Virus record (IMG/VR): IMGVR_UViG_3300045988_138996 | Location: 64,001 to 128,000 of that record | Length of the DNA stretch: 64,000 nt | Strand: one strand, 5' to 3' | DNA from: a virus | Part shown: one piece after another, positions 677 through 30,439 of the stretch | How positions within the stretch are numbered: the stretch's first letter is position 1 | Layout: each line of letters begins with the position of its first letter | Translations under genes and position numbers: made by a program | The notes under the pieces: model-generated | What the model was told of the DNA's origin: nothing | Seen by the model: only the letters and a program-made list of their open reading frames with translations | The model's database searches: none

Positions 677-1351
677 ATGATTACGAAATTAAAAAAAGTT
701 TGTAAACGATGTGTCGAAGATTATAAAGATCTTAATATGTATAAGTTAAATATTATCTTATATTTTATGGACCGACTTCATCGTTTTAAATTAAGTGAAC
801 CATTTTTCGATGAAGAATTTATTCTTGATAGCGAAATGGGCCCGTATTTAGAATCTGTCAAAGATGCTTATGGTCAATATAATTTATATAATATCCCGAC
901 ATTTGGTGCGAATAATATCTTTGATGACGACGAAGTATTAACGTTAAATGATAGAGATGAAATTGCCAACGATGACGACGACATTAAGGATACACATGAA
1001 GTCGTTATTACTTCTTACTATGAAGAAGATGGCATTCCTCATTGGGACGAAGCCGATATGTCTTTAGATAATCAAACTGAAGAAGATATTTATGAATTCA
1101 TGAAGGCTGCTTTCGAAGCTATCGATACGACTGGCTTGATTTACTTCTATGAAACATCTAAAGATCCTGAACGCAATGTCGATGTGTTTTTATCAGATAA
1201 ATTAGCAGCATATTTAGATGTTAAGGCAAAAGGATTCCCTGAACCAGATAAATCTAAACCGTTGCCACAAGTCGAAGAAGAACATAAAGACGACGAAATC
1301 ACGGAAGAGGAAATTCTTGAACGGCTTAATAGAGCTCGTAAACCTTTGTAA
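677..1351 (+). CDS. Panacea/DUF4065-like domain protein with acidic C-terminal half
   Basis: The N-terminus (MYKLNIILYFMDRLHRFKLSEPFFDEEFILDSEMGPYLESV) fits my recollection of the DUF4065 (Panacea, SocA/GepA-like) pattern kLqKLLYy...g.plf.e.f.a...GPV...vy. The C-terminal half is D/E rich. Assigned from motif memory, not a search. Confidence 0.4.
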   Translation: MITKLKKVCKRCVEDYKDLNMYKLNIILYFMDRLHRFKLSEPFFDEEFILDSEMGPYLESVKDAYGQYNLYNIPTFGANNIFDDDEVLTLNDRDEIANDDDDIKDTHEVVITSYYEEDGIPHWDEADMSLDNQTEEDIYEFMKAAFEAIDTTGLIYFYETSKDPERNVDVFLSDKLAAYLDVKAKGFPEPDKSKPLPQVEEEHKDDEITEEEILERLNRARKPL

Positions 1352-1360
1352 TATATAAGG

Positions 1361-2053
1361 TTGAAGGAGGCTTATATGTCTGAAAAAGAATTATCAAAAA
1401 AAGAAGCCGAACTCACAAAACTGCTAGATCAATATGTCGATCGTTATAATTCTTGGGGTTATACCGAAGAAGGAAAAATGATTTACAATAAAGCCATGCA
1501 TATGTTAGCTACAGATCATGCTATCTATGCACGTATGCCAATTATATGTAAAGGCGAAAATTGTATTTATAAAAACGATCCGTTACATAAAGCAGGTGTT
1601 GTTAAGGTAGGCGAACCGTGTATTTGTGAAACTACGTTAATAGCTTCCAAATTTGCACAGTATCAACAAGAATTTAATCTTGAATCTGCGTCATATACTG
1701 ATAATGTATTAGTTCACGAATTAATTACGCTCGACCTACTTATTTCTAGAGCAATGCAATATATCAACAATCGTGATTACGAACCAGTTATCGATGTCGT
1801 TACTAATGTGACAGAGACAGGTCAAGAAATTACTCAACCTATGGTTTCTAAAGGTATCGAATTATATACGACACTTTCTAAGAAACGTGACGAAGTATTT
1901 AGTTTATTAGCTGCGACACGCAAAGATAAAATTCGTAATAATATCGACGATGTTGATCATGATGCATCGCTCCTTGCGTCGCTTAACGATCCTGACTTCT
2001 TTATTACACAAGACCAGATCGAAGCGGAGAAAGAGTCGAGGTTAAATGAATAA
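1361..2053 (+). CDS. hypothetical protein (Cys-cluster; small-terminase role possible only by position)
   Basis: Intact 230-aa ORF with the CKGENCIY...GEPCICE cysteine cluster. Coding-like composition. No confident family. Confidence 0.5.
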   Translation: MKEAYMSEKELSKKEAELTKLLDQYVDRYNSWGYTEEGKMIYNKAMHMLATDHAIYARMPIICKGENCIYKNDPLHKAGVVKVGEPCICETTLIASKFAQYQQEFNLESASYTDNVLVHELITLDLLISRAMQYINNRDYEPVIDVVTNVTETGQEITQPMVSKGIELYTTLSKKRDEVFSLLAATRKDKIRNNIDDVDHDASLLASLNDPDFFITQDQIEAEKESRLNE

Positions 2054-2562
2054 TGGGTGCAGCTGAAAAAATTATTGAAGCTACTGGAAATGCAGCTAGT
2101 AAAGCATTAAAAGGTGGAGCAGCTAACGAGTTATTACCTAATGGCGCTGTTAAAGGCTCATCTATTTTTAAAACAATTGAAAATTTTATTACTAATCCTC
2201 AAGGATCTATTCAACAAGCAGCTAATCCATTATACACTCTAGGACTAGGTGCTGCTGGTCATCAAAGCGGCATGGGTGTTGGTAATTCATTACGTTTTGC
2301 TGCAATGAATGAAACAAGTCGTAAAGCTTTTGTTGACAAATTCGGAGAAAGAAATTTTGTAGAAGAATTTGCTGATCATGAAAAAGCTGGTGCACTGCAA
2401 AAAGAATTAGATTCATTTTTTGACGAAGCTAAATACGATCATGTTCGTACAGGTATTGCTGCCGTAACATTAGGTTCGACAGCTTATCGTGTAGCATCTG
2501 GTGGCGGATTGTATCGAGATTCTGACGGCAACTTTAATATTATCGGTATTCCAGGTATTTAA
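2053..2562 (+). CDS. hypothetical Gly/Ala-rich protein
   Basis: ORF abuts the previous stop (taATG). Gly/Ala-rich and small. First of three consecutive similar-flavoured genes. Confidence 0.5.
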   Translation: MGAAEKIIEATGNAASKALKGGAANELLPNGAVKGSSIFKTIENFITNPQGSIQQAANPLYTLGLGAAGHQSGMGVGNSLRFAAMNETSRKAFVDKFGERNFVEEFADHEKAGALQKELDSFFDEAKYDHVRTGIAAVTLGSTAYRVASGGGLYRDSDGNFNIIGIPGI

Positions 2563-2565
2563 TAA

Positions 2566-3321
2566 ATGGCTGTTCCAGTATCAAGAATAACTAGAGCTCT
2601 TGGCAAAGCTAAGAAAATGGTAGCAGAAGCCAATAGCCCGACATTAGAATTAAATAGAGTAGCTGAAAATTATAAGACGGCTCTTAAAGAAGCTGATATT
2701 GAAACTTCAGCTGTTACTAATAAAATTAAAGAAAAGCCAAAAAGTACTTTTGCTGAAGAACGTAAAGTTGCTCGAGCTAAAGATGCTACTGAAAAAGCAG
2801 CTAAAGAAGCTAAAGCTGTTAATCCTAGCGAAACAAATGTCGCTAAACAAACAGATAATACTCAGCAAATAGCACAAAATCAAGTTCAAAAAAATCAAGT
2901 AGAAGTAGCCAAAGCTAATGAAGAAGTAACATCTCAAATTGATGAGACTGCTGGTTTTAATAAATATCGTCCATTTAATAGCACGATTGGTGCACTAAAG
3001 GATATGCGTCAGGATTTAATTAGAGTAAAAAATCCTAATGCTTATGAAACATATAATCGTTATGGTTTTACAGTAAAAGGCGGAGCATTAGCCGGTGGTT
3101 TATTTGTAGCTGGTGCTGTAGACAATACGATAACAGCCGGTATCGATCAAACGTCAACAAATCATATGGCGTCGTTAGGTACACTTAATCCAGTAGTAAA
3201 TCCTGTACCATCTTCTAGTATTGGTAATACACCCAATAATGCATTTGATAATATGGGCGCATCTGGCGATATTAATTTTGCTTTGAGAAAAAATAATACA
3301 TTAACTCCGGGGACACTTTAA
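2566..3321 (+). CDS. hypothetical protein (Lys/Glu-rich N-terminal half, Gly/Ala-rich C-terminal half)
   Basis: Tightly packed 251-aa ORF. Charged, coiled-coil-like N-terminal half, then a GGALAGGLFVAGAV hydrophobic segment. Confidence 0.5.
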   Translation: MAVPVSRITRALGKAKKMVAEANSPTLELNRVAENYKTALKEADIETSAVTNKIKEKPKSTFAEERKVARAKDATEKAAKEAKAVNPSETNVAKQTDNTQQIAQNQVQKNQVEVAKANEEVTSQIDETAGFNKYRPFNSTIGALKDMRQDLIRVKNPNAYETYNRYGFTVKGGALAGGLFVAGAVDNTITAGIDQTSTNHMASLGTLNPVVNPVPSSSIGNTPNNAFDNMGASGDINFALRKNNTLTPGTL

Positions 3322-3324
3322 TAG

Positions 3325-3780
3325 ATGATTAATCCAATTAAGTATGCAGGATCAATGATTAAAGGTAAAGGATCGACTGCAAGTAAAATGCTTTGGGAAA
3401 ATAAAGGTAATGCTGTAGCTACTGGTATTTTTTCAACGATGACATATAATAGTGCTCTTGACGAAGGAAAATCTAAAGGCGAAGCTTTTGGTGAAGCAGC
3501 GTTTGATGCTGCATTAAATTTAGGCTTTGGTTTTGTTCCTGGTATGTTATTACAGGGAGCTTATTATGGTGGTCCTGCGTTAGTAGGACTTGCTAATGAT
3601 TTAGCTGCTCAAGGTCGTCAAGAAGCACAACAGTCATATCGACCATTTGCTTGGACTAATCCAGTAAATTCCCAACAGTATGCAACAATGAGACAGGCAG
3701 GAATGGCCATCGCTCAGCAATCTCAATATAGTTTACAAACAACTATGATGGGTAATGAAGGTAAAGCATTCCATAAATAA
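3325..3780 (+). CDS. hypothetical small protein with hydrophobic Gly-rich core
   Basis: 151-aa ORF. The GFGFVPGMLLQGAYYGGPALVGLA segment suggests membrane or virion-internal behaviour. Confidence 0.5.
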   Translation: MINPIKYAGSMIKGKGSTASKMLWENKGNAVATGIFSTMTYNSALDEGKSKGEAFGEAAFDAALNLGFGFVPGMLLQGAYYGGPALVGLANDLAAQGRQEAQQSYRPFAWTNPVNSQQYATMRQAGMAIAQQSQYSLQTTMMGNEGKAFHK

Positions 3781-3782
3781 TT

Positions 3783-5303
3783 ATGAAATTAGAACAAGAT
3801 TATTCTGTAAAAGAACTAATGGAAATGCCGTTAGATGACCTAGTTAAATTAGATTATCCTAAGTTATCTAAAGAAGGCAAGTTAGTCGTTATTAAACGAG
3901 ATCCAGTCATGTGGGCAAAGTCGTTTGTTCAGATTTATAATATCGATTTAGACAAATATGCTCCATGGACACCACGGTGGTATCAAGCCGAGATGCTTCG
4001 TGACAGAAGTCTTCGTAAAGTATTCCGATGTGGTCGTCGTTGTGTGACTGGTAATCTCGAAATTCAAATGCCATCGACTGGTAAAATTAAAACAGTACAA
4101 GAATTATATAATTCCCAAGAAGAATTTGAAGTTCTTGCACTCGACGATAATTACCAAGTCGAAATAGCACAACATGCTAAAGTCTATGATAATGGTATTA
4201 AACCAGTATATAGGCTTATGACATCGTCTGGTCGAACTATTGACGCCACTGATAATCACCCGTTCTTAACAGAGTTAGGATGGGCAGAACTTTCTAAATT
4301 ATCTGTCGGTGAAAATATAGCTATACCAGTTAAATTAAATTATTTTGGTGATAATAGTATAGAAGAAACTGAATTAAAAATTCTAGCACGTAAACTTAAT
4401 AAAGATAAATCTACTATTAAGGAAATACCAGAAGAAGTATTTACGTTAAATCGTGAAGCCTTATCTGTGTTTGTATCAGAATTAATTCAAGATTCTTTTA
4501 ATGAAAAAGAAAAGCGCCCTGTTAATATGCTTTATATTTCTAAAAGTAAAAAGCTTGTTAAACAGTTAGCACATTTATTGTTAAGATATGGTATCGTAAC
4601 AACATTCCGACAAGAAAACGACAAGTATTCTTTAGGATTCGTTAATAGTAAAACGCATCGACGTCTAAAGAAAAAATCTCATACTTCAATGTTCGCACTA
4701 TATCATTCTTATAAATATCAACCGGTAAATGATAAACTTAATAAAGTTTTCTTATCATATTTACCAGTTAAAGAATTATCGCCATCAGATTTTAAAAAAG
4801 TAAAATTCGATAAATTATCTGTCGAAGAATACTTAAAATCTAAAACTCTAAATAAAAACGAAGCTCGTGAATTTGCCGAGCTTTTAGGATTCGAAACAAT
4901 TTCCGATATATTATATGGTGATATATATTGGGATAAAATCGTATCGATTGAATATTTAGGTGAGCAACAAACATATGATGTTTCGGTACCACACTATCGT
5001 AACTTTATTGCTAACGATATTATTTCACATAATACTGGCAAAACAGAAACGATGGTGGTCGAAGCACTCTTTAATGTGTTTACACGTAAGAATTTTATTC
5101 ATATGTTCGTAACACCATATCAATCACAAATTCGAATGATATTCGATAATATCCGTCAAAAAATTGATAGCTCTGCACTTATTAAACGAGAAGTAACACG
5201 ATCGACTACTAATCCTCATTTATTAGAATTCTCTAATGGTTCTAAGATCGTTGGATTTACTTCTGGTGCCGGATCTGGTATGAGTGCCGCATCAATTCGG
5301 GGT
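3783..5303 (+). CDS. terL: terminase large subunit, exon 1 (includes an in-frame intein at 4041..5033)
   Basis: Removing residues CVTGNLE...IISHN joins FRCGRR to TGKTETM, a Walker A loop (GRRTGKT). The exon ends ...GMSAASIRG at ggt|aac. The ORF-track tail NIASPICSVMSIC* is read-through into the intron. Confidence 0.8.
4041..5033 (+). mobile_element. intein (331 aa) in the TerL P-loop, with a degenerate DOD/LAGLIDADG-type endonuclease region
   Basis: Starts with Cys (CVTGNLEIQM, block A). Has TDNHPF (block B TxxH). Ends TYDVSVPHYRNFIANDIISHN followed by Thr+1. The middle has LAGLIDADG-like remnants (VFVSELIQDSF; SKKLVKQLAHLLLRYGI). In frame, 993 nt. Confidence 0.85.
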
Positions 5304-5709
5304 AACATTGCCAGCCCCATATGTTCAGTAATGAGCATATGCTAAACAGGAGTTAAACCGGGGAAGAACTTTAAGAGCTCGTTAAACTACAACGTAATTA
5401 GAAATGATAAGCGTGAATGTTGCGAAAGCTGAAAAAATTAACGAGATGATAATATGGTTAAATCCTAAGTTATCGTAAACAAGAGTTTGTTCCGGTAGGA
5501 ATGTCCGTATAGGACAACCTCTAACGACTATCCGATTGCGTCGGAGTACCTTTTATAATAAAGGGAAAAATACCTGGTCCCACTATGTGGGATTAACATA
5601 TAGTCTGTTCACGTTCTGTAATGGAAGTGCTATGAATTAACATAGGTTATTTAAATGATAAACATTATTAAAAAAATGCTGGCGGGCTGATTCTGGTTGG
5701 AGTGTATAT

Positions 5710-5738
5710 TTGACATTTTAAATGTAATATAGTATTAT
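5710..5738 (+). promoter_or_regulatory. sigma70-like promoter for the intron 1 endonuclease gene
   Basis: TTGACA (5710-5715), 17-nt spacer, TATTAT (5733-5738). About 40 nt upstream of ATG 5776. Confidence 0.55.
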
Positions 5739-5775
5739 AATAATATAAATATTTTATAATACGAGGTACTTTAAA

Positions 5776-6726
5776 ATGGAAGAAAAACTTCAACGAATAT
5801 TAAATCTTTTATCTGAAGGAAAAAATTCAGAACAAATTTCATTAATTGTTTTTAAGACAAAAAATTGTGTTCAATTTAATCGATTTTGTTCTGAAAATAA
5901 TATTGATTTAAAACAATATAAAGCATTCAAATATATGGATAAAGAATGGCTTTCAGAACAATTAAAAAAATATAATAACAGTCCTACTATTTTGGCTAGA
6001 GAACTTAACTTATCATTAACTTCTGTAAATCGATATGCAATAGAATTTGGATTAAGAAAACCTAAAAAATCTATTGCATCAGTAAATCCTATAAATGAAA
6101 AATATTTTGATGAAGTGGATAATTTTAAAAAAGCCTATTGGCTTGGTTTTATTATGGCTGATGGTTATACTTATAAAACTCCTAATCGTGAAAAATATGA
6201 ATTAGCGATTAAAATTAAGTCTACAGATATTGATCATTTAAAAGAATTTGCTAAGGATGTTGAATTTCCAGAAGAAAAAATTGCTATAGGCTCTGGCAAA
6301 AGAAATGGCAATATTAATTATTATTGCCAATTAAGAACATATAATACACATTTAGTGACAACTGTTATGCATAAGCATAAAATTGTTCAAAATAAAACTT
6401 ATGTGCAATGTTTACCAGACAGTATTCCAAAAGAATATATCTCTGATTTTATTAGAGGATATTGGGATGGTAATGGCACTCTTAAAAAAGCCGGTTGGTC
6501 TGCATGTACAATGTCTTATCAATTAATAGAATCTTTTGTTAAATATTTTGATGAAAATAATATTGAATATACTTTAAGAAAAGAATTATGTAAAAGTGGG
6601 AACTATTTACATCTAATAAGAATAAGAAGTAAATCACATGATACTTTTGTTAAATTAATTTATCCTCCAGAAAAATATGCTTTAAAAAGAAAATATGATT
6701 TAATATATACGAGTCCACAGAATTAA
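5776..6726 (+). CDS. LAGLIDADG homing endonuclease with N-terminal tandem HTH modules (intron-encoded)
   Basis: Two LAGLIDADG motifs (YWLGFIMADGY; DFIRGYWDGNGT). Two N-terminal HTH-like repeats (NSEQISLIVFKTKNCV...; SPTILARELNLSLTSVNRYAIEFGL). Visibly more AT-rich than the flanking exons. Confidence 0.85.
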   Translation: MEEKLQRILNLLSEGKNSEQISLIVFKTKNCVQFNRFCSENNIDLKQYKAFKYMDKEWLSEQLKKYNNSPTILARELNLSLTSVNRYAIEFGLRKPKKSIASVNPINEKYFDEVDNFKKAYWLGFIMADGYTYKTPNREKYELAIKIKSTDIDHLKEFAKDVEFPEEKIAIGSGKRNGNINYYCQLRTYNTHLVTTVMHKHKIVQNKTYVQCLPDSIPKEYISDFIRGYWDGNGTLKKAGWSACTMSYQLIESFVKYFDENNIEYTLRKELCKSGNYLHLIRIRSKSHDTFVKLIYPPEKYALKRKYDLIYTSPQN

Positions 6727-7024
6727 TTTCTGTGAATATAACTTAATTGCTGGGAACCCCTTAGAGCTTTTGATACCGAAGTGTAACAATTCAAAAGATT
6801 GGGCAATCAGCAGCGAAATCTTATTTTTTTAAATAAGATACGTTCAACGACTATCCCTTGGCTACCGCGTTAAAAATTAGCAATAGGAGTACGGCCTAAG
6901 TAGGCGGGTGAAATTCCCTTAATTGGAAATGGTTATCTTTAATTTAATTAAAGAAGATATAGTCTGGCCTAGTATGAAAATACTAGAAGGATTTAACGGT
7001 AACGGTTAAATTCATAACAAAGCG

Positions 7025-7184
7025 TGGATCTCTCTCGATGAAATGGATTATCTCGGCGAAGGTGACTTCGATACGATTTATGCGTTGTGTATGGAACGTG
7101 ATACGATCGGTATGACATGTTCTTCTACACCGACTGGTCGTAGATCGAAATTTTTCGATATATGTACCAAGAAGGAACTCGGGT
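7025..7184 (+). CDS. terL: terminase large subunit, exon 2
   Basis: Encodes WISLDEMDYLGEGDFDTIYALCMERDTIGMTCSSTPTGRRSKFFDICTKKELG, i.e. Walker B (LDE) and an SST coupling-motif-like segment. No start codon or RBS of its own. The 3' boundary is uncertain (7179-7190). Confidence 0.7.
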
Positions 7185-7209
7185 TAAAATAAATAAATTA
7201 GGTTTTTTA

Positions 7210-7238
7210 TAGCAATTCCATCCAATATATGGTAATAT
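7210..7238 (+). promoter_or_regulatory. extended -10 promoter candidate for the intron 2 endonuclease gene
   Basis: TAGCAA (7210-7215), then TGgTAATAT (TG at 7230-7231, -10 hexamer at 7233-7238). About 45 nt upstream of ATG 7284. Confidence 0.4.
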
Positions 7239-7283
7239 ATAATTGTAGTTATTTTACATATATTAATAAAAGGAATTGTTACT

Positions 7284-8387
7284 ATGATTAATGAAGATGA
7301 ATTGAGAAGTAAATTAGAAGAAAAATCTGTAGCTCAAATAGCTAAAGATTATAATTGTTCAGAAAATACGATTAGAAGAGCAATGAAGAAGTTTGGATTA
7401 ATAAAAACTTCAAAGAAACCATATCAAAATAAAGAAATATTATTAGATATGTTGCAGACAAAAACAGTTCAAGAAATTGCAGATTATTTTAATGTTGATA
7501 ATCATACTATTTCTAGATGGATCAATAAAAATAATATATCTTTTAATGATAAAAAACTTTATAGAAATAAAGCTTGGCTTGAACAAAAATTAAAAGAATT
7601 TAATGGTTCTTTATCTGCTATATCTAAAGAAACAGGATATAAAAAAGACACAATGCTTGAATGGTGTTATAAGTTTAATTTAAAACACACACCTGATTTT
7701 AATAAAAAATATAATTTAAATATTGATTATTTTAAAAATATTGATTCTGAAATAAAAGCATATTATCTTGGTTTTGGTATGGCTGACTTTGGAATTAGCA
7801 AAGATTGTTATTCTTTTGAATTTAGATTAAAAAAAGATGATAAATATATTATTGAAAAATTAGCAAAAGAATTAAATTATACTGCTGATTTGTATCATTT
7901 TAAAGACAGTATTCGAGAAGGATATTCATTAAGAATTTCTTCAAAAGAAATATGTAAAGATTTAATTTATCATGGAATTGTTCCAAATAAGTCAGGAAAA
8001 GAAGTTTTGCCAAATACTGTTTCAAAAGAATTAATAAAACACTTTATTCGAGGTTTTATTGATGGAGATGGATATATTGGTGGTATAAAAGATAAAACTC
8101 TTGCTATTTGTAGTATGTCTTATAATATATTGTTATCAATTAAATTATTTTTAGAAAAAGAATTAAATATAAAAAAATATAAAATTAAACCAACATTAAA
8201 AGAAAGTGGAAATATTCTATATTATTATAATATATATGGTGATTCTTTTATTAAAGTTCTTGATTATTTATATAAAGATTCAACAATATATTTAATTAGA
8301 AAACATGATAATTATTTAATTCATTTGAATAAAGATATTAATCGTAAAAATAAAAAACTTAACAAGGCTCCATTATTAAGTAATTAA
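7284..8387 (+). CDS. LAGLIDADG homing endonuclease with three N-terminal HTH repeats (intron-encoded)
   Basis: LAGLIDADG motifs YYLGFGMADFG and HFIRGFIDGDGY. Three HTH-like repeats (SVAQIAKDYNCSENTIRRAMKKFGL; TVQEIADYFNVDNHTISRWINKNNI; SLSAISKETGYKKDTMLEWCYKFNL). Confidence 0.85.
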   Translation: MINEDELRSKLEEKSVAQIAKDYNCSENTIRRAMKKFGLIKTSKKPYQNKEILLDMLQTKTVQEIADYFNVDNHTISRWINKNNISFNDKKLYRNKAWLEQKLKEFNGSLSAISKETGYKKDTMLEWCYKFNLKHTPDFNKKYNLNIDYFKNIDSEIKAYYLGFGMADFGISKDCYSFEFRLKKDDKYIIEKLAKELNYTADLYHFKDSIREGYSLRISSKEICKDLIYHGIVPNKSGKEVLPNTVSKELIKHFIRGFIDGDGYIGGIKDKTLAICSMSYNILLSIKLFLEKELNIKKYKIKPTLKESGNILYYYNIYGDSFIKVLDYLYKDSTIYLIRKHDNYLIHLNKDINRKNKKLNKAPLLSN

Positions 8388-8606
8388 TAATTGCAAATCT
8401 TTTGAACTGCTGGAACGTCCGTTAGGAAGATCAGCAGCGAAATCTTTAATTTTTTAAAGAAACGTTCAACGACTATCCTCGTGGTGAGGAGTAGGGTCAA
8501 GCGACTCGAAGCGGAAGATATCCTTTTAATAGGATAAAGATATAGTCTGAGCTATGTAGCAATACATAGAAGGTTGTAAGTAGCGATTACAATCGTAACA
8601 AAACTG

Positions 8607-8928
8607 TCCAAGAGCATTATCACCCGACTCAACATAACCCCATGTGGTCGGATGCGATGGAAGAAGAATTTAGAAATACATACGATAAAAACGCATATGA
8701 TCACGAAGTATTGGCAGAGTTTGGTGTCGAAGAAGCCGGCGTATTCGATAAAGATAAAGTCGAAGAAGCGACACAAATCGACAACTATGCTTATTTCGAT
8801 CGAGATAAATATAAACCTGTTCGTTCTATGATGGATGATAGTAATGTAAAAGAAATACATATACTACCAGAAGGACGAACTACATATTATCCTAATGTAT
8901 TTAGATGTATGGGTGTGGATTGGGATTT
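8607..8928 (+). CDS. terL: terminase large subunit, exon 3
   Basis: Encodes ...FQEHYHPTQHNPMWSDAMEEEFRNTYDKNAYDHEVLAEFGVEEAGVF...RCMGVDWD, the start of the nuclease domain (GVD). The ATG at 8642 is internal. Both boundaries are approximate (start 8581-8607, end 8926-8929). Confidence 0.65.
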
Positions 8929-8958
8929 TAGGATCATTGGAGTTGATCGGAAAGTTTT

Positions 8959-8987
8959 TTGACAGATCTTTATTTTTGTTGTAATAT
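8959..8987 (+). promoter_or_regulatory. sigma70-like promoter for the intron 3 endonuclease gene
   Basis: TTGACA (8959-8964), 17-nt spacer, TAATAT (8982-8987). ATG at 9035. Confidence 0.55.
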
Positions 8988-9034
8988 AATAGTATAATAA
9001 ATTAATATTTTATTTTTAAATAATAGGAATTATT

Positions 9035-10009
9035 ATGCTATATAAAAATGAACAATATTTAAAAGAAGCTGTTAAAACAAAAACCAATAGTCAAATTGCA
9101 AAAGAGAATAATATTAGCGCAGATACAGTAACATATTGGCTGAGAAAATATAATATAAAAAAATATGAAGAAAAAGCTCCTTATATGGACAAAGCATATA
9201 TGGCTGAATTATACAATAAGTATAAAAGTGGAAATAAAATTTCTAAATTATTAAATTGCAATGAAAAAACAATATATGCTTGGTTGGAAAAACACGGAAT
9301 AGATACTTCAGAAACTGGTAGCCAAGGAGCTAGAAAACATTTTTATAATGAAAATTATTTTAAAAAAATAGACACTGAAAGAAAAGCTTATTTTTTAGGT
9401 TTTATACTTGCTGATGGATGTGTTTATTTTGGAACAAATAAAAATTCATATAGATTTCAAATGAATTTACAGGCACAAGATAGATATATATTAGAAGAAC
9501 TTCAAAAAGATATTGAATCTGATTATAAAATTCAAGATAAACAATTTGGATATAGTAAAAATGGTGATCCAATTTTAATTTCTTTATTAAAAATTAATTC
9601 ATCTAAATTATGTGAAGATCTAATGAATCTTGGAGTTGTTCCTAGAAAATCTATGAGACAAGAAATGAAAAAAGATTTAATTCCTGATAAGTTGATTAAA
9701 CATTTTATTCGTGGTTACTTTGATGGAAACGGATCTTGTTCTATAAGAAAAAATTCAATCTCTTTAGATTTTTTAGGTAACAAAACAATATGTTTGCAAA
9801 TTGATGAGTATTTAAAATCAAATAAAATAAATAAAAATGTTCTATATGGGAACAAAAAAAATGAATTATATGGTTTAAGAATAAATAATACAGATAATAA
9901 AATTTTATTATATTATTATTTATATAAAGATGCTACTATTTACTTAAAGCGTAAAAAAGAAAAATTTGACAAATTTCTCCAATGTAAAAAAAGTCCTCTT
10001 ATTAAGTAA
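9035..10009 (+). CDS. LAGLIDADG homing endonuclease with two N-terminal HTH repeats (intron-encoded)
   Basis: LAGLIDADG motifs YFLGFILADGC and HFIRGYFDGNGS. HTH repeats TNSQIAKENNISADTVTYWLRKYNI and GNKISKLLNCNEKTIYAWLEKHGI. Confidence 0.85.
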   Translation: MLYKNEQYLKEAVKTKTNSQIAKENNISADTVTYWLRKYNIKKYEEKAPYMDKAYMAELYNKYKSGNKISKLLNCNEKTIYAWLEKHGIDTSETGSQGARKHFYNENYFKKIDTERKAYFLGFILADGCVYFGTNKNSYRFQMNLQAQDRYILEELQKDIESDYKIQDKQFGYSKNGDPILISLLKINSSKLCEDLMNLGVVPRKSMRQEMKKDLIPDKLIKHFIRGYFDGNGSCSIRKNSISLDFLGNKTICLQIDEYLKSNKINKNVLYGNKKNELYGLRINNTDNKILLYYYLYKDATIYLKRKKEKFDKFLQCKKSPLIK

Positions 10010-10228
10010 TTAATAAGTAATAAACTGGTTGAATTGCTGGAATATCCTAAATGGACAATCAGCAGCCAAGTCTCTAGTAGAGAAAGGTTCAACGACTATC
10101 CTTGTATAAGGAGTAGGATCAAGCGATCCGAAGTGGCCAGCAACCTAGTAATAGGTCGAAGATATAGTCTAATCTATATAGTAATATATAGCAGCTTAAA
10201 AGCGTATTAAGTTTAGCGAACTTAATAG

Positions 10229-10421
10229 AATATACATGAAATCACAAGCCCCAACATCTATACTTATACTTGAATACGATCAAGTATTTAATAAATTTAG
10301 AGTTATTAATAGAACAGAAATCGAATCGTCTGAATTTACATTCGATAAAGCTGTTAAAAAGATAATTGATTTAAATGCTATTTATAACCCTAGCTATATT
10401 TATATAGACAGAGGATCTGGT
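10229..10421 (+). CDS. terL: terminase large subunit, exon 4
   Basis: Encodes ...KSQAPTSILILEYDQVFNKFRVINRTEIESSEFTFDKAVKKIIDLNAIYNPSYIYIDRGSG (RNase H-like nuclease strand pattern). It ends at ggt|aaa. The start is approximate (10203-10229). The track tail KYLPYIL* is intron read-through. Confidence 0.65.
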
Positions 10422-10685
10422 AAATATTTGCCCTATATATTATAAGTGAATTATATAATATATATGCAGTGTGGTATTAAGCGAGAAGCCTAAGTTAATT
10501 AATTAATATGGTAACTCGAACCGAAGACTTAATTAAATTAAGTCAGGGGCAGAGCATAGTAAGTGAAAAGATATAATCTTGCCAAGAGACCGCACCATAC
10601 ATTCACAATACGTATGAAAAAGTATGCCGACCTTATAGGAAACTATAAGAACTAGGAGATAAAAAGCTCCTAGGATAACAACGTG
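10422..10685 (+). ncRNA. ORF-less intron 4 of terL (264 nt, probably a compact group I intron)
   Basis: The contiguous guide atatttgcc (10424-10432) pairs with the exon 5 start gaatat (10686-10691) and the exon 4 end ggt (10419-10421, G-U at the splice site). The intron follows U and ends in G (10685). The junction restores ...IDRGSG|EYQMESL... in frame. It has an S-like aagatataatct but no clear canonical P/Q/R. Confidence 0.65.
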
Positions 10686-11264
10686 GAATATCAGATGGAA
10701 TCTTTAAAGATTTACGGTAAACAACATCCTGAAACCGGACTCGATAAAAAAGTTAAAGGTTGGATGTTCTCCGAAAAAATCGATGTACAAGATCCTGTCA
10801 CTGGTACTTTAGAAAAGAAACATTTAAAACCATTTATGGTGAATCAATTATCGATATTAATTGAACGCGGTAATCTTATATTGAGTCCTTGGGACGCACA
10901 TATATATAAACAATTAATTGATTATCGTGTCGAAAAAATTACGGCGGCAGGTGTTCCTGTTTATAACAGTGATAACGAGCACTTTGTCGATGCTTTGGGT
11001 TTAGCTTATTTAGCGTTCGTTGAACATTTTCCAGAACTTACTAAGTTAGTTAAAAAAGCATCGTATGAAGCCGTCTATTCATTTAATAGTGGTAATTCTC
11101 TACCACTATATGAAAAACGAGATCTTGAAAATCCATGGTCTAATGAAAAGAAACAATATGAATCAGTAGACGAAGCATGGGAAAAAGTTCCGCTTAACGA
11201 TTCGTTTAATAGACGTACGTCTAGAAAACCTTTAGGCGGAATGTTTAAAAGGACATTATTTTAA
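10686..11264 (+). CDS. terL: terminase large subunit, exon 5 (C-terminal nuclease domain)
   Basis: EYQMESLKIYGKQHPETGL...NSDNEHFVDALGLAYLAF has the typical TerL C-terminal acidic D..D..al pattern. The GTG at 10683 in the track is not a real start. Confidence 0.75.
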   Translation, partial: EYQMESLKIYGKQHPETGLDKKVKGWMFSEKIDVQDPVTGTLEKKHLKPFMVNQLSILIERGNLILSPWDAHIYKQLIDYRVEKITAAGVPVYNSDNEHFVDALGLAYLAFVEHFPELTKLVKKASYEAVYSFNSGNSLPLYEKRDLENPWSNEKKQYESVDEAWEKVPLNDSFNRRTSRKPLGGMFKRTLF

Positions 11265-12919
11265 TGGCTGAAGATAAAAAGATATTATATAGACCATCAA
11301 TAGAACCACAACGACACTATGAAAGTGATGGTCAGTTTAAAAAGAAAATAACTTCGGTTCCGGATCCGATACCATATTATCCAAAACCTGAAGAGAAAAA
11401 ATCTGAAACGGACGAATTGTTGGCAGATTTAAAGATGGTCTATGATCTTTTACCATTCATGCCAATACCGATTCGACCTATTATCGAAACTATGATCGTA
11501 ACGATTACAACCGATACGATTATACGAATCGATCCTCCTGATCCTGAGACACCATTACCTCCAGAACCAGAGGATCCTAATAAATTTATTCCGGTGCCAA
11601 CACCAGAATCAGATTTACCTGAACCTAAAGTTAATCCTGAACCACTACCTAAAGACGATTCAGATTTAGATTTTCCTGATGTACCAATTGTCGATGTACC
11701 TCAAGAAAAATCACAAGAACTAGATCGATTAGTATATCGATGGACAAAGCGTAATTTAGTTCGTGTTAAAAAGCATTGGATTGAAAAACTTAAAGATTAT
11801 CTTCAAGACTATCTTTCGAAGATGTTTAATGCCGTACAGTTATGTGGTGCTGAAGACATTACTATTTTATTATTAGCTTTCGATGCGTTAGCCGTTAAGA
11901 CTACGTCTGGTAAAAAATGTAAAGTAGCTCATGATAGTATCGTACGTAACGATTTATTAATAAGAGAAAAAGCAAAGTTAATGGCTAAGTTATATTCAGC
12001 CGACGAACTTATTCGTTTTATGAGAGCTATCGAGGCGGCAGCACAAACTCGTCAAGAATATTATAATCATGATTTTTTATCGTATTGCCCGACTATGTTA
12101 AGTCAATATGAAAACGATATGTTAAGAAGTTATCGTGGTAAATATGACGAAAAATATGTGAACGCCGTTTATCAGTATAATAAATTATTAGTATCTTCTG
12201 CAGAATTATCTAAAGAAGTATTTAATTTAACAGCTGAAAATGCCATGTCTAAAGGTGTATTAATCAATAATGGTATTAATCCATTTGAAAAAACTCCGAC
12301 ACCTGACCCTATATTCTATTTAAATACATTAGCTCCTGAAGCTGGTAAGATTGGCGCTAATGGTTTATCATCGACTGGTAATTATGGTAACCTTAAACCC
12401 GGTGCTGGATCTACTTCTAGTAGCGGTGGAGATGGTACTGTCGATGCTGTTAATCTTAAAGGTAATGACAAGATTCAGAAGATGTGGAACTTCTTTAAAG
12501 ATATGGGCTACGATAATAATGCGATTGCCGGTATTATGGGTAATATTCAACAAGAGTCTCAATTTAGTTTAGGTATTATTGAAGATGGTTCTGGTTCTAT
12601 GACTCCTGGCGTTGGTTATGGTTTAGTTCAATGGACTGATGCAGAACGTCAAGGATTATTGTCACGTATTGCTTCTCAACTTGGTAAACAACCTAGTGAT
12701 CTTGAAGCGCAATTAGCAACGATTAAATATGAGATCATGAATACACATACTGGTGCTAAACCAGAACATATGAATGGTAAGAGTATTGAACAAGCAGTAA
12801 GTTGCTTTACTGGTAACTTCGAATACCAAGATAGTGATGGTCGTGAAAATATTCCGGTAGTAGCTCATAGTACTCGTGTCGGATATGCTCAAAATATTTA
12901 TAATAATTTTGCAAAGTAA
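11264..12919 (+). CDS. virion-associated peptidoglycan hydrolase candidate (Pro-rich N-terminus, C-terminal phage tail-lysozyme-like domain)
   Basis: The C-terminal IAGIMGNIQQESQFS...GVGYGLVQWTDAERQGLL matches my recollection of the phage tail lysozyme family (GN..qES...GiGl.QWT). The N-terminus has PPDPETPLPPEPEDP repeats. Confidence 0.6.
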   Translation: MAEDKKILYRPSIEPQRHYESDGQFKKKITSVPDPIPYYPKPEEKKSETDELLADLKMVYDLLPFMPIPIRPIIETMIVTITTDTIIRIDPPDPETPLPPEPEDPNKFIPVPTPESDLPEPKVNPEPLPKDDSDLDFPDVPIVDVPQEKSQELDRLVYRWTKRNLVRVKKHWIEKLKDYLQDYLSKMFNAVQLCGAEDITILLLAFDALAVKTTSGKKCKVAHDSIVRNDLLIREKAKLMAKLYSADELIRFMRAIEAAAQTRQEYYNHDFLSYCPTMLSQYENDMLRSYRGKYDEKYVNAVYQYNKLLVSSAELSKEVFNLTAENAMSKGVLINNGINPFEKTPTPDPIFYLNTLAPEAGKIGANGLSSTGNYGNLKPGAGSTSSSGGDGTVDAVNLKGNDKIQKMWNFFKDMGYDNNAIAGIMGNIQQESQFSLGIIEDGSGSMTPGVGYGLVQWTDAERQGLLSRIASQLGKQPSDLEAQLATIKYEIMNTHTGAKPEHMNGKSIEQAVSCFTGNFEYQDSDGRENIPVVAHSTRVGYAQNIYNNFAK

Positions 12920-26925: not shown

Positions 26926-27126
26926 ATGGCTTACTCTAATAACTCTGGTGTAACTACAGCGTCTGAATACACTCGTAGTTATACTACTTTTTCCGGCTGT
27001 GATATCGTAGCTACATTCGGTTCCGAAGTAGTAGCTGAAATTCAAGGTATTACAGTTTCTATTAATCGTGAAAAGGCTCCAGTGTACACCTTCGGGAGTG
27101 CAGAGCCTCGTTCTATCTCGAGAGGT
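26926..27126 (+). CDS. tail tube protein, exon 1
   Basis: Immediately follows the sheath. Homologous to the N-terminus of the intact paralogue at 30429 (YTRSYTTFSGCDIVA... versus YTRTYTSYSGCDIVA...; REKAPVYTFG versus QEKAPVRTLG). Ends ...SISRG at ggt|aaa. The track tail NSAFASPLQ* is intron read-through. Confidence 0.75.
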
Positions 27127-28063
27127 AAAAATTCCGCGTTTGCTTCTCCTTTGCAGTAATGCAATGTATAATTAAACTCTGTGATATGCTGGAAACCCCT
27201 TAGAGCCTTTAGTACCAAAGTGTGACAATCTAAAGGATTGGGCAATCAGCAGGCAGCGTAAGCGCCTCAACGACTATCCGTAAGGAGTACATCATAACAG
27301 CTGATGGAAGTGCAGAGCTCCCTTTTTCGTGTCATATGTGGCATTGCAAATAATTTTTCTATGTAATATAATAATAGAAAAGGAGATGATCACATATGAA
27401 GTATAAATATAATTTAGATTTTTTTAAAAATGATTCACCTGAAAAATATTATTTCTATGGTTTTTTAGCGTCAGATGGTTATATTTCAGATGATAAAATT
27501 AGCATTGGAATAAATGTTAAAGATAGAGAAATATTAGAAAAATTTCAAAAATTAATTTGTCCAGAAAAACCAATTTATGAAAAGACACAAACAAATTCTT
27601 TAAAATTTGAAATAACAAATAAGGATTTGTCAAAAAAATTAAAAAAATATTTTTCTATGATAACCAATAAAAAATATGAAGAAATCAGGTTTCCAAATGT
27701 TCCAGAAAAATATCTTAAAGATTTTATCCGTGGTGTAATTGATGGAGATGGAAATATCGATACAACAAAAGGATATCAAAAAGACAAAATTTATATTGGA
27801 GCAAGATTAAGAATATTAGGAAATAAGGAATTCTTAATAGAATTAAATGAAAAAACTAAATTATTATATCCACATAATACCAATGCAGTAAATAAAAAAG
27901 GAAAAGAAAATGTTTATGTGATAACATATAATTTTAAAACTGCTAGAGAATTATTAAGAATAATATATTATGATGGATGTTTATCGTTAACAAGAAAATT
28001 TAATCGATCTAGGGATGAAGATATAGTCTCAACAATTACGAAAGTTATTGATAAGAAAAAATG
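27127..28063 (+). mobile_element. group I intron 1 of the tube gene (937 nt), with a LAGLIDADG ORF between R and S
   Basis: The guide cgcgtttgcttctc (27135-27148) pairs with the exon 2 start aaacgcg (28064-28070, 7 bp) and the exon 1 end gagaggt (27120-27126, 7 bp including G-U at the splice site). P atatgctggaaacc 27184-27197, Q caatcagcagg 27243-27253, R cctcaacgactatcc 27265-27279, S aagatatagtct 28018-28029. The last base is G (28063). Confidence 0.85.
27344..27372 (+). promoter_or_regulatory. sigma70-like promoter for the tube-intron endonuclease gene
   Basis: TTGCAA (27344-27349), 17-nt spacer, TATAAT (27367-27372). Then aaaggag and ATG 27396. Confidence 0.55.
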
Positions 28064-28064
28064 A
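27396..28064 (+). CDS. LAGLIDADG homing endonuclease (short form without HTH repeats, intron-encoded)
   Basis: Motifs YYFYGFLASDGY and DFIRGVIDGDGN. The last ~16 codons overlap the ribozyme S element, and the TGA stop (28062-28064) straddles the 3' splice site. Confidence 0.8.
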   Translation: MKYKYNLDFFKNDSPEKYYFYGFLASDGYISDDKISIGINVKDREILEKFQKLICPEKPIYEKTQTNSLKFEITNKDLSKKLKKYFSMITNKKYEEIRFPNVPEKYLKDFIRGVIDGDGNIDTTKGYQKDKIYIGARLRILGNKEFLIELNEKTKLLYPHNTNAVNKKGKENVYVITYNFKTARELLRIIYYDGCLSLTRKFNRSRDEDIVSTITKVIDKKK

Positions 28065-28177
28065 AACGCGGTATTGCTGGTACTATTGTATTCACATTGT
28101 TCGACCGTGATGCCCTTGTAGATGCTCTTGCTGTTCGTGCAGCTAAAGCAGCTTATTTCCAACGTATCGGCGGTGAT
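28064..28177 (+). CDS. tail tube protein, exon 2
   Basis: KRGIAGTIVFTLFDRDALVDALAVRAAKAAYFQRIGGD aligns to the paralogue segment GPRTIAGSMVFAVLDKHVIYEII. The 5' end is fixed by guide pairing. The 3' end is approximate (28174-28185). Confidence 0.7.
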
Positions 28178-28531
28178 TTGGCGGTAGCCTAGTCGGCATA
28201 TAAAGTAATTTGTATGTCTGCAAATATATGATAGTTTGTATTTGCACCGATTGGATCGAATTGCTGGGAAATCCTAAAGCTTAAAATACCTTAATGGTTG
28301 TGAAAACAGAAATAAATTTTAAGATGATATATGGTTAAAACCTAAGTATTATAATAATGGACAATCAGCAGCGAAGTCGCAATATTGCGAAACGTTCAAC
28401 GACTATCTCGTGAAGAGAGTAGGATAAAATGCTTTCCGAAGTGGTCCATCCCATACAGTGGGAAATGATATAGTCTATGCTTATATGAAAGTATAAGAAA
28501 AACAAATTTAGCAAATTTGTGTATAAAATAT

Positions 28532-28560
28532 TTGACAATAATTAATATCACCATTATAAT
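28532..28560 (+). promoter_or_regulatory. consensus sigma70 promoter for tnpB
   Basis: TTGACA (28532-28537), exactly 17 nt, TATAAT (28555-28560). Then gaaagga and ATG 28590. Confidence 0.65.
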
Positions 28561-28589
28561 ATTCTTATAAACAAGAAAGGATATTATAT

Positions 28590-29678
28590 ATGGAAAAAAG
28601 ATTTTTATTACAAATATATCCAACAAAAGAACAAGAAAAATTAATACAAAGAACATTTGGATGCGCAAGATTCGTTTATAATTATTTTTTAGATTATAGA
28701 ATAAAAAAATATAATGAAGAAAATATTTCTTTAACTGCTAATGATTGTAGTAAAATATTAACTTCATTAAAAAAAGAAAAAGAATTTTTGCAAATTCCAG
28801 ATAAATATGCATTACAAAATGTATTAAAAGATTTAGATATGGCTTATAAAAGATTTCAAAAAGGAATTGCGAATTACCCAAAGTTTAAATCTAGAAGTAA
28901 TTATAAGACATATAGAACAAATCGATCTGGTAATAAAATTAGATTTGTTTCTGATAATATAATTATTCTTCCTAAGTTAAGAGAAGTTAAGTTTAGGAAC
29001 AATATTGTTCCAGATGGCGAAATTGTGAATGTTGCAATTATACAAAAACCTTCTGGTAAATATTATGCGTCTGTTCTTTGTAGAAATTGCAAAGTAAAAA
29101 ATATTGAAAAAACTGGCAAAAGTGTTGGTATAGATTTAGGAATAAAAGATTATATTGTTACATCTGATGGACAAAAAATTCCAAATAATCATTTTCTAAA
29201 AAAGACAATATCTAAAATAAAGAAAATGCAAAAAGAATTTGATAGAAAAAAAGATGGTAGCAATAATAAAGAAAAATTAAGAATTAAAATAGCTAAACAA
29301 TATGAAAAACTAACAAATGCAAGAAAAGATTATATTCATAAACTTTCTATGAAATTAATAGAAGAATATGATGATATTTGCATTGAAGATTTAAAGATAA
29401 AAGATATGGTTAAAAATAAACTTTTGTCTTTTGATATAATGGATTGTTCATGGTATGAATTACGAAGACAGCTTGAATATAAAGCAAAATTCTATAATAA
29501 AAGAATTCATATTGTTGATAGATATTTTCCATCGAGTAAAAAATGTTCAGTTTGTGGTTATAAAAAAGAAGATCTTTCGCTTGATGATCGATTTTGGACT
29601 TGTCCAGATTGTAATACCACTCATGATAGAGATATAAATGCAGCTAAAAATATTCTTAAAGAAGGAATGAAAAATTAA
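28590..29678 (+). CDS. tnpB: TnpB (IS200/IS605-family OrfB, RuvC-type RNA-guided nuclease), intron-encoded
   Basis: 362 aa. OrfB N-terminal pattern (LLQIYPTKEQEKLIQRTFGCARFVYNYFL). RuvC I GIDLGIKDY (D at 29133-29135). RuvC II ICIEDLKIKDM (E at 29385-29387). Zinc ribbon CSVCGY...CPDCN. RuvC III HDRDINAAKNI (D at 29631-29633). No tnpA anywhere in the window. Confidence 0.9.
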   Translation: MEKRFLLQIYPTKEQEKLIQRTFGCARFVYNYFLDYRIKKYNEENISLTANDCSKILTSLKKEKEFLQIPDKYALQNVLKDLDMAYKRFQKGIANYPKFKSRSNYKTYRTNRSGNKIRFVSDNIIILPKLREVKFRNNIVPDGEIVNVAIIQKPSGKYYASVLCRNCKVKNIEKTGKSVGIDLGIKDYIVTSDGQKIPNNHFLKKTISKIKKMQKEFDRKKDGSNNKEKLRIKIAKQYEKLTNARKDYIHKLSMKLIEEYDDICIEDLKIKDMVKNKLLSFDIMDCSWYELRRQLEYKAKFYNKRIHIVDRYFPSSKKCSVCGYKKEDLSLDDRFWTCPDCNTTHDRDINAAKNILKEGMKN

Positions 29679-29774
29679 TTATTGTTGAACCGCAGGAATT
29701 GCGGAGATTGTCTTGAGACGTTTATCGTCAATAGAAATTTTATTTTATAAAAAATTCAGATTAACTATCAACCG
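29600..29774 (+). ncRNA. candidate omega-RNA (reRNA) scaffold overlapping the tnpB 3' end and the intron 3' end
   Basis: By analogy with IS200/605 elements, where the guide RNA scaffold spans the tnpB 3' end to the element right end. Local hairpins: ccgca (29690-29694) / tgcgg (29700-29704) and gacg (29717-29720) / cgtc (29726-29729). The extent is a guess. Confidence 0.35.
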
Positions 29775-30131
29775 TACACAATTACTGAATGGGACACAAA
29801 ATTAACTAACATGGTTGTTAATTCCTTGGGCGCTAACAACAGCAATAGCCAAGTAGCTTCCACTAACCCATTCAAAGTTACACAAAATGTAGCTATTCAA
29901 TCTACTCCAAAATATTCTGACGAAATTCCTCCATTCGACATTACATTGTCCTTTGCGAACGAATATGGTCAATCTGCAGTTATGGTTATCTATGGCTGTG
30001 AAATTTTGAACGAAGCTTCTAGCTTCTCTGTAGATTCTACTACTACTGATAAAGCTTGTACTTACATTGCTCGCTCTGTCGATTACTTGCAACCAGTAGA
30101 AAACAAATACTTGCTTGATAACAAGTACTAA
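29775..30131 (+). CDS. tail tube protein, exon 3
   Basis: YTITEWDTKLTNMVVNSLG...IPPFDITLSFANEYGQSAVMVIYGCEILNEASSF aligns to the paralogue LPNFDVTLSFANEYGRQSTISVYNCTIIDEGQIM. The frame is open from 29751. The ATG at 29811 is internal. The start is approximate (29775-29793). Confidence 0.7.
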   Translation, partial: YTITEWDTKLTNMVVNSLGANNSNSQVASTNPFKVTQNVAIQSTPKYSDEIPPFDITLSFANEYGQSAVMVIYGCEILNEASSFSVDSTTTDKACTYIARSVDYLQPVENKYLLDNKY

Positions 30132-30190: not shown

Positions 30191-30439
30191 GTGAAAAAAT
30201 CTCAAGAAAATACTAATCAAATATTTCTGTATCTAAATCGTGGTTTACAAGATTACATTAATAGTTCTTTATTATCTGGTGAACATTCTAGTAATGTTAA
30301 GAAAGATATGGAAGAAATATGCTATAATATTATTAGTGAGCGTAATATTGAACTTAAAACGAACATTATTACGTTGATCAATAATAGAGTTCAACAATAT
30401 ATGAAATTATATAATTTAAAGGTGAAATATGCCAAATGA
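30191..30439 (+). CDS. hypothetical small protein
   Basis: 82-aa ORF with a GTG start after aggagac. Overlaps the next gene by 11 nt. Confidence 0.4.
   Translation: MKKSQENTNQIFLYLNRGLQDYINSSLLSGEHSSNVKKDMEEICYNIISERNIELKTNIITLINNRVQQYMKLYNLKVKYAK

Follow-up and report, generated by a model that had tools for sequence, protein, structure and literature searches.

A phage terL gene apparently colonised by one intein and five group I introns

How can a phage obtain one terminase large subunit (TerL) from motifs that are scattered over a row of separate open reading frames (ORFs)? This question is raised by IMG/VR virus record IMGVR_UViG_3300045988_138996, of which we analysed a window of 64,000 nucleotides (nt), the whole stretch from position 64,001 to 128,000 of the record; all coordinates given below are those of the window, which has a G+C content of 33%. 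The terL locus occupies 3783..11264 on the plus strand (7482 nt) and belongs to an uncultured tailed phage of approximately 230 kb. The ORFs listed for 2500..12500 were all on the plus strand and comprised a frame of 520 amino acids (aa) at 3783..5345, three frames of 316–367 aa, and short frames with TerL motifs. Exact look-ups assigned the proteins of the window to a phage of ~230 kb that recurs in many metagenomes. When the locus was compared with GenBank phages by megablast, nothing was returned beyond intron-core matches of 80–90 nt; no close GenBank relative was found.

The initial annotation of the locus proposed a single TerL gene interrupted by one intein and four introns. Our analysis retained the gene, the intein, and the putatively self-splicing group I nature of the introns, but raised the number of introns to five, giving six RNA exons. 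Very probably, 3783..11264 represents one functional terL gene in which six selfish elements have settled. The exons account for 1782 of the 7482 nt (23.8%), as in the earlier estimate of about a quarter, the intein for 993 nt, and the introns for 4707 nt; with six such elements, an essential gene can be ~76% selfish DNA. The three intron-encoded endonucleases were mutually 28–33% identical, and most of the ribozyme cores were unrelated at the DNA level, which argues for independent insertions. Independence had already been suggested, although for five insertions rather than six.

One colinear TerL protein

The conceptual 593-aa product derived in the initial annotation matched 854 proteins, the best of which were uninterrupted TerLs of approximately 580–600 aa with 47–53% identity, most of them carrying the Pfam domain Terminase_6N. 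The product scored above the cut-off for this domain of T4-type large subunits (PF03237, 9.9e-08) and matched the TerL ATPase domain of PDB 4zni (7.7e-05), with an alignment that was continuous across the intein excision site in the P-loop region. The annotated order of motifs (Walker A, Walker B, SST, and the nuclease acidic residues) coincided with that of uninterrupted homologues, as expected of one colinear TerL. In the spliced product, GRRTGKT, WISLDE, and SSTP were all located in invariant columns of the alignment with these homologues. D338 and D340 (GVDWD), D397 (IDRGSG), and D503 (FVDALG) were invariant in 32 sequences, and the acidic residues of the C-terminal RNase H-like nuclease appear, from this alignment, to be conserved.

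An alignment with 13 homologues also showed colinearity, but two junctions required correction, as the earlier product lacked four residues (consensus QRAD) after IRG and had four surplus residues, LIYM, after GVDWD. The missing residues correspond to a 12-nt mini-exon inside 5304..7024, an interval that had been treated as one intron; exactly four residues lie between RG and the Walker B strand in 120 of the 120 homologues among the matches listed. The surplus residues resulted from placing intron 3 at 8929..10228, whereas it extends over 8927..10238, and both the homologue alignment and the intron-less alleles show LIYM to be spurious. Once the mini-exon and the corrected junction 3 were applied, no gaps remained at any junction. 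The predicted mature length of 593 aa thus held by coincidence, with the two junction errors cancelling each other; intein-free homologues have 572–612 aa.

The reconstructed gene begins with exon 1, which consists of an N-extein part (3783..4040, aa 1–86, ending in RCGRR), aligned with the N-termini of uninterrupted TerLs, and a C-extein part (5034..5303, aa 87–176, TGKT...SAASIRG). The mini-exon (5680..5691, aa 177–180) is followed by four exons assigned by alignment: one with Walker B (WISLDE) and the SSTP coupling motif (7025..7184, aa 181–235, partial), one ending in CMGVDWD (8607..8926, aa 236–340), one running from KSQAPTS to IYIDRGSG (10239..10421, aa 341–403), and the last exon, EYQMESL...FVDALGLAYLAF... 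(10686..11264, aa 404–593 plus the stop codon). All of them lie on the plus strand, and their sum of 1782 nt gives a stop-free translation of 593 aa.

Both in gene calls and in database records, the pieces are annotated one by one, as would be the case if the locus were a pseudogene in decay or several separate genes and not one expressed TerL. However, no exon contains a frameshift or an internal stop, the catalytic residues are intact, and no second terL is present within the 64-kb window. In addition, several samples yielded the same interrupted allele, and among relatives, defined as metagenome loci with at least 90% amino acid identity in the exon-1/intein ORF, exon identity was 89–100% despite shifting intron content. 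We therefore regard a pseudogene or separate genes as highly improbable.

A single functional terL would be expressed by established group I chemistry (PMC3984707). The primary transcript would fold into five ribozymes, in each of which the last U of the 5' exon would pair with a G of the internal guide and guanosine would attack the 5' splice site; the freed exon would then attack the bond after the last base of the intron, and the six exons, one of only 12 nt, would be joined. Translation would yield a 924-aa precursor, from which the 331-aa intein would subsequently excise, restoring GRR-TGKT and leaving the 593-aa TerL. The 5' exon ended in U opposite a guide G at all five introns, and a terminal G was present in four of the five; the two bases before that G paired with the final two of the four bases of J7/9.

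Several observations count against the reconstruction. Specific scans of IMG/VR and JGI metagenomes for spliced or intron-less junction patterns found none, and the final junction scan gave 14 chance hits only. Introns 1b and 4 have short P1 helices of only 3–5 base pairs (bp). The Rfam group I intron model RF00028 (gathering score, 50 bits) did not match intron 1a, even in a permissive search of this intron alone, and scored 14.5 bits, below the threshold, on intron 4. Promoter-like sites upstream of the endonuclease ORFs were no commoner than in shuffled sequence.

Public records name the pieces of terL "replicative DNA helicase," "HNH endonuclease," or "transposase." As TerL is a standard phage marker gene, such split loci are missed or misplaced in phylogenies.

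An intein in the Walker A loop

The HINT-type intein (4041..5033, plus strand) lies in frame within 3783..5345, as GRR/C...SHN/TGKT (here and below, a slash within a sequence marks a junction). It was recognised by the Pfam model Intein_splicing (PF14890, 5.7e-26, 91.6 bits against a cut-off of 35.8) and has Cys1 (CVTGN), a TxxH-like ATDNH, a C-terminal ..ISHN, and Thr at +1, with an embedded LAGLIDADG_3 domain (PF14528, 5.1e-05). Its removal gave GRRTGKT, which aligned with homologues across the junction, so that both the in-frame intein and the restoration of Walker A were confirmed as first annotated. Homologues P0056 and P0083 (1003 aa, ~52% identity, same TerL family) also have P-loop inteins inside Walker A; however, the P0056-type insertion, GRRIGK/C..., is two residues downstream of the site in the window. 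The Walker A loop appears to have been invaded independently more than once, at sites two residues apart.

Two tandem introns flanking a 12-nt exon

The interval 5304..7024 was resolved into the ORF-less group I intron 1a (5304..5679, 376 nt), the mini-exon TGG CGG GCT GAT (TGGCGGGCTGAT, encoding Trp-Arg-Ala-Asp), and the group I intron 1b (5692..7024, 1333 nt) with an endonuclease ORF at 5776..6726, about 85 nt beyond the mini-exon. The mini-exon was identified in the ORFs and DNA of relatives, whose exon-1 ORFs end in ...IRGWRADWISLD, ...IRGWRADWISLDEMDIA, and ...IRGWRADKNGVHI; another ORF continues uninterrupted through exons 2–4. Its alleles show synonymous differences only (CGG/CGC/CGT for Arg, GCT/GCC for Ala). 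Other frames, namely IRG-NIAS-W with an extended exon 1, LAGS, and RADS with a shifted mini-exon, were ruled out by the WRAD that relatives have and by the position of intron 1b's U.G pair at GAU/.

Intron 1b was supported by RF00028 (76.6 bits at 6692–6986), by intron-less alleles, and by the match of its endonuclease to LAGLIDADG_3 (9.7e-12). Its guide GAGUC directly precedes P2 (6716..), the U.G pair is formed at GAU/UC, and the 3' end is AAAGCG/.

The boundaries of intron 1a were drawn from intron-less alleles and from its fold. The 470 nt between the 5' splice site at 5304 and the first endonuclease ORF hold group I features of their own: a P1 formed by exon GGGGU and guide GCCCC (5314–5318), a 9-bp P2 with a GUAA loop, P3 to P9.1 including the P3/P7 pseudoknot, a long extension of P5 that bears GAAA loops and an 11-nt tetraloop receptor, and a P10 of UGGCGG with UUGCCA. 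The strands AACGACUA and AUAUAGUC (J6/7-P7 and J8/7-P7') are common to the other introns. The fold of intron 1a as a group I intron was modelled manually by us, on little sequence variation: it was 98.8% paired in 10 alleles, with two compensatory pairs (in P8 and the P5b hairpin) and several changes that keep G.U pairs. A minimum free energy (MFE) z-score of −3.5 was obtained, and the MFE prediction recovered most of the helices. The P5 extension is 77–87% identical to unannotated gaps in Herelleviridae phages; in an intron of the Brochothrix A9 portal gene, which RF00028 matched below its threshold (38.5 against 50 bits, E 4.5e-07), the shared module is located in the P5 insertion. Being 12 nt from intron 1b, intron 1a probably spreads by co-conversion when the endonuclease of its neighbour cuts.

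Alternatively, 5304..7024 could be removed as one unit, by constitutive exon skipping or as a composite intron, leaving a TerL without WRAD and a transcript reading CGGGGTTGGATC. In Twort orf142 and the Coxiella 23S rRNA gene, exons that lie between tandem group I introns are documented to be skipped (PMC10136302), the TerL of SIOphi shows such skipping in vitro (PMC11878797), and the product so obtained, the 593-aa protein of the initial annotation, is open. However, WRAD or QRAD is present in all homologues among the matches listed and in the intron-less alleles, so that four residues would be lost from the protein. The exclusively synonymous variation of the mini-exon haplotypes, the P1 that intron 1b has of its own, with a U.G pair exactly at GAU/, and the separate occurrence of introns 1a and 1b in relatives all point in the same direction. 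Thus, removal as a single unit is very unlikely, and we retain two introns with a coding exon between them.

Tandem arrangements were also observed elsewhere. In the relatives L228 (reverse strand, ~8725..7789), L276, and L277, three group I introns stand in tandem (1a, an ORF-less 1b, and 1c), with mini-exons of 12 nt (TGGCGTGCCGAT) and 15 nt (TGGATATCACTGGAT) between them. In L014 (4580/4581; also in L013 and L015), an ORF-less 346-nt intron 1b follows a 5' exon that ends in C (GCA GAC/AAACTT), with the guide GUC. The cleavage-site pair would accordingly be C-G and not the usual U.G wobble.

The 3' end of intron 1a

The 3' boundary of this intron is uncertain. The candidate positions were 5679 (or an intron of 5303..5678) and, if a canonical terminal G is used, 5682. 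Alleles without intron 1a read GG[A/C] TGG CGN, the guide UUGCCA, which adjoins the P1 part, pairs with UGGCG(G), and sequence constraint shifts exactly at the /TGG boundary. These three observations place the 3' junction before TGG, and P9.0 also points to GGN/TGG.

This junction has its own difficulties. When TGG is kept, the intron tails are ..AAATGC/, ..AAAAAT/, ..ACAAAT/, and ..ATAAAT/, of which the last three lack a terminal G; the haplotype of the window, ..AAATGC/TGG, would have a G as its terminal base only if the 5' cut were one base before the U.G pair. The last base of intron 1a would therefore be C or U, or else G or A with the cut moved by one.

The canonical solution is that the intron ends with the G of TGG (5682), which leaves a mini-exon of 9 nt (CGGGCTGAT) and the protein sequence IRG-RAD-WISLDE. 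Trp177 would be lost, and the mature TerL would be one residue shorter than in phages without intron 1a. No other in-frame placement combines U at −1 (U5303.G5314) with a terminal G in every haplotype. In the second step of group I splicing, the leaving group is a terminal G (PMC3984707), and the P7 of intron 1a (GACUA with UAGUC) does not differ from the P7 of introns 1b, 2, and 3, all of which have a G as their last base. However, this placement disagrees with the intron-less alleles and with the constraint boundary, and it shortens the four-residue spacing between RG and Walker B that is invariant in the 120 homologues. The UUGCCA–UGGCG(G) pairing would enclose the putative terminal G within a helix, and by the P9.0 rule of the other four introns the last base should be preceded by AA, which fits ..AAA[U]/UGG and not ..UG/G. 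The two outcomes differ in the spliced junction, which would read CGGGGTCG(G/C/T)GC with the canonical G and CGGGG(T/C)TGGCG with Trp kept.

Taken together, we lean slightly towards a kept Trp and a non-canonical intron end; use of the canonical G is possible but rather doubtful, and the rest of the weight goes to exon skipping or other outcomes. That intron 1a is functional and splices accurately beside a 12-nt coding exon without the canonical terminal guanosine is, in our view, an evenly balanced proposition. A natural intron of the Coxiella 23S rRNA gene without a terminal G was reportedly described by Raghavan and co-workers in 2007 (J Bacteriol 189:6572, cited in PMC3428280), whereas for intron 1a the missing G is read from sequence. 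If it is confirmed, intron 1a would, to our knowledge, follow Coxiella Cbu.L1917 as only the second natural case. It would also be the first natural G-less intron within a gene encoding a protein, which requires an exact junction, and one with natural haplotype variation available. Coding exons of 12 nt and 15 nt flanked by tandem ribozymes, together with the apparent lack of a terminal G, offer an easily cloned test system for 3' splice-site choice.

Introns 1b, 2, and 3 and their endonucleases

Intron 2 (7185..8606, 1422 nt) and intron 3 (8927..10238, 1312 nt) are group I introns with ORFs at 7284..8387 and 9035..10009, respectively. RF00028 gave 92.2 bits at 8350–8569 for intron 2 and 113.1 bits at 9976–10191 for intron 3; each of the three matches above the gathering score, including that to intron 1b, started in the 3' end of a LAGLIDADG ORF. 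A search with the Rfam model, which the initial annotation had recommended as a check, was thus positive for introns 1b, 2, and 3 and negative for introns 1a and 4. The U.G pairs are formed by GAU/ with the guide GAGUC in intron 1b, GGGU/ with GCUC in intron 2, and GGGAU/ with GUCCU in intron 3, and the 3' ends are ..GCG/, ..CUG/, and ..AUG/, respectively.

All three ORFs were above the cut-off for PF14528, and Pfam also found N-terminal helix-turn-helix repeats. Each has a double LAGLIDADG motif, namely YWLGFIMADG and FIRGYWDGNG (5776..6726), YYLGFGMADF and FIRGFIDGDG (7284..8387), and YFLGFILADG and FIRGYFDGNG (9035..10009). On this basis, the ORFs of introns 1b, 2, and 3 are predicted to encode LAGLIDADG homing endonucleases. 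The gene therefore contains one endonuclease in each of these introns and a fourth such domain in the intein; introns 1a and 4 have no ORF. The ORFs are located in the P1 loop and read through the internal guide into P2 (6700..6726, 8360..8387, and 9985..10009), and the ORF of intron 3 has its stop codon inside the GUAA loop of P2. In view of this overlap, translation and ribozyme folding would be expected to compete. Sites of the form TTGACA-17-TATTAT (5710..5738) and TTGACA-17-TAATAT (8959..8987) occur upstream of two of the endonuclease ORFs.

Intron 4 and its family

Intron 4 (10422..10685, 264 nt, ORF-less) was delimited by intron-less alleles and covariation. It has a P1 of GGU with GCC, a 6-bp P10 of GAAUAU with AUAUUU, U at −1, and the end ACGUG/. 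Its other features are a P3/P7 pseudoknot, a P5 that contains an 11-nt receptor (CCUAAG..UAUGG), and a P9 that carries a GAAA loop; the MFE z-score was −4.35. A search with a 19-nt core motif showed that more than 119 IMG/VR contigs share AGTCAGGGGCAGAGCATAG (loci L158–L272). The covariation set consisted of 95 aligned sequences, that is, intron 4 and 94 further distinct relatives, and included the P3/P7 pseudoknot. In this set, 94.3% of the structure was paired, compared with 28–43% in slid controls, 42 of 56 pairs had a compensatory change, and the covariation score was 0.476, compared with 0.05–0.11. The family alignment ruled out a P7.1 of AAGAU with AUCUU; P7.1 is formed by GUAAG and CUUGC and has a conserved 14-nt loop, UGAAAAGAUAUAAU. 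Judged by the covariation in 95 sequences, intron 4 is a real group I intron.

The low score of intron 4 was characteristic of its family, which RF00028 missed in 12 of the 12 loci tested. In the whole window, RF00028 found three of the seven group I introns recognised. Since the single Rfam model misses introns such as this widespread and strongly covarying family, intron counts in phage metagenomes are likely to be underestimates.

Intron polymorphism among relatives

Comparison with relatives fixed the junctions. Locus L005 is without introns 1a, 2, and 3, L003 without introns 1a, 1b, and 3, and L012 without introns 1a, 1b, 3, and 4; L022 and L023 lack intron 4, and L013–L015 also lack intron 1a. 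In the absence of intron 2, L005 reads GGC TTC, which agrees exactly with the originally annotated junction 7184/8607. L005 and L003 read GAT AAA AGT CAG at the site of intron 3. L012, L022, and L023 read GG[C/T] GAG TAT CAG at the site of intron 4, where 10421/10686 had likewise been placed to the base. As each intron is precisely absent in some relative, comparison of these alleles fixes every predicted junction at the DNA level. The alignment to uninterrupted homologues, also proposed initially, had upheld the colinearity but not junctions 1 and 3.

Intron content was variable in other respects. ORF-less versions of intron 2 of 238–317 nt were found in L012, L003, and L008, and the ORF-less 346-nt version of intron 1b in L014 occupies the same site as that in the window. 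In relatives, additional intron sites follow WISLD, EMD, and GVD, which brings the lineage total in terL to eight intron sites and one intein site; L008 also carries five introns. The protein clusters had 897 members for exon 1 with the intein and 325, 155, and 28 members for the three endonucleases. The eight sites, with presence and absence and with ORF-plus and ORF-less forms, provide a natural experiment on homing, co-conversion, and intron loss.

Around the insertion site of intron 4 (10398..10421 and 10686..10700 compared with L012, L022, and L023), alleles that carry the intron read TCT GGT/GAA and those that lack it AGT GG[C/T] GAG. Such synonymous differences flanking the site are as expected for co-conversion tracts or for fit to the guide sequence. 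In L013, the module upstream of terL contains an IS200/IS605 element (1281..2817; Y1 transposase and OrfB/TnpB), which is absent from the window and from the other relatives.

Comparison with known interrupted terminase genes

Terminases are recognised targets of introns (PMC3984707). For Bastillevirinae, the literature describes terL genes with two to three group I introns, a small exon between introns, and exon skipping, and the terL and DNA polymerase introns of Bastillevirinae and Twort-like Herelleviridae are self-splicing and often encode homing endonucleases, those of terL being inserted in its conserved motifs (PMC11878797). The introns of the window are predicted to be of the same kind; however, HNH endonucleases are listed for the terL introns of Bastillevirinae (PMC11878797), whereas those of the window carry LAGLIDADG endonucleases. 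Furthermore, the window has five introns and an intein in one terL, in a phage unrelated to the Herelleviridae set. The terL of Jug (jumbo gut) phages, which are large, uncultured, and known from metagenomes, is broken up into two or three pieces by group I introns, with splicing confirmed by metatranscriptome reads, and inteins and stand-alone endonucleases are common in Jug and crAss-like phages (PMC12880540). Jug genomes are 360–402 kb (PMC12880540), compared with ~230 kb for the phage of the window, whose terL has six RNA exons and an intein.

Very short exons between tandem introns have precedents in Twort orf142, with three group I introns and a 23-nt exon, and in the Coxiella burnetii 23S rRNA gene, where two group I introns flank a 34-nt exon (PMC10136302). 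The exon of the window has 12 nt and is protein-coding, and splicing must therefore be exact to the base.

Thus, a multiply interrupted terL is of an already known kind, as genes with two to three introns have been published (PMC11878797, PMC12880540), and the description of the locus as exceptional applies to its density, since five introns and an intein are denser than published reports. New here are this density (exons are 24% of the locus), the 12-nt coding exon, and the population-level polymorphism; an intron without a terminal G is possibly also new.

A second split gene in the window

Another split gene was observed at 26926..30131 (plus strand), after a 1010-aa ORF; it is a paralogue of the ORF at 30429..31679. 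Its exon pieces are located at ~26926–27128, 28065–28235, and 29900–30131. Neither of its introns was found by RF00028 at E ≤ 1. The first gap contains a group I-like core and a LAGLIDADG ORF (27396..28064). In the second gap, a group I-like core (GATATAGTC at 28467, GAAA loop) is followed by a TnpB ORF (28590..29678) with the Pfam domains OrfB_IS605, Cas12f1-like TNB, and HTH_OrfB_IS605, and this gap looks like an IStron.

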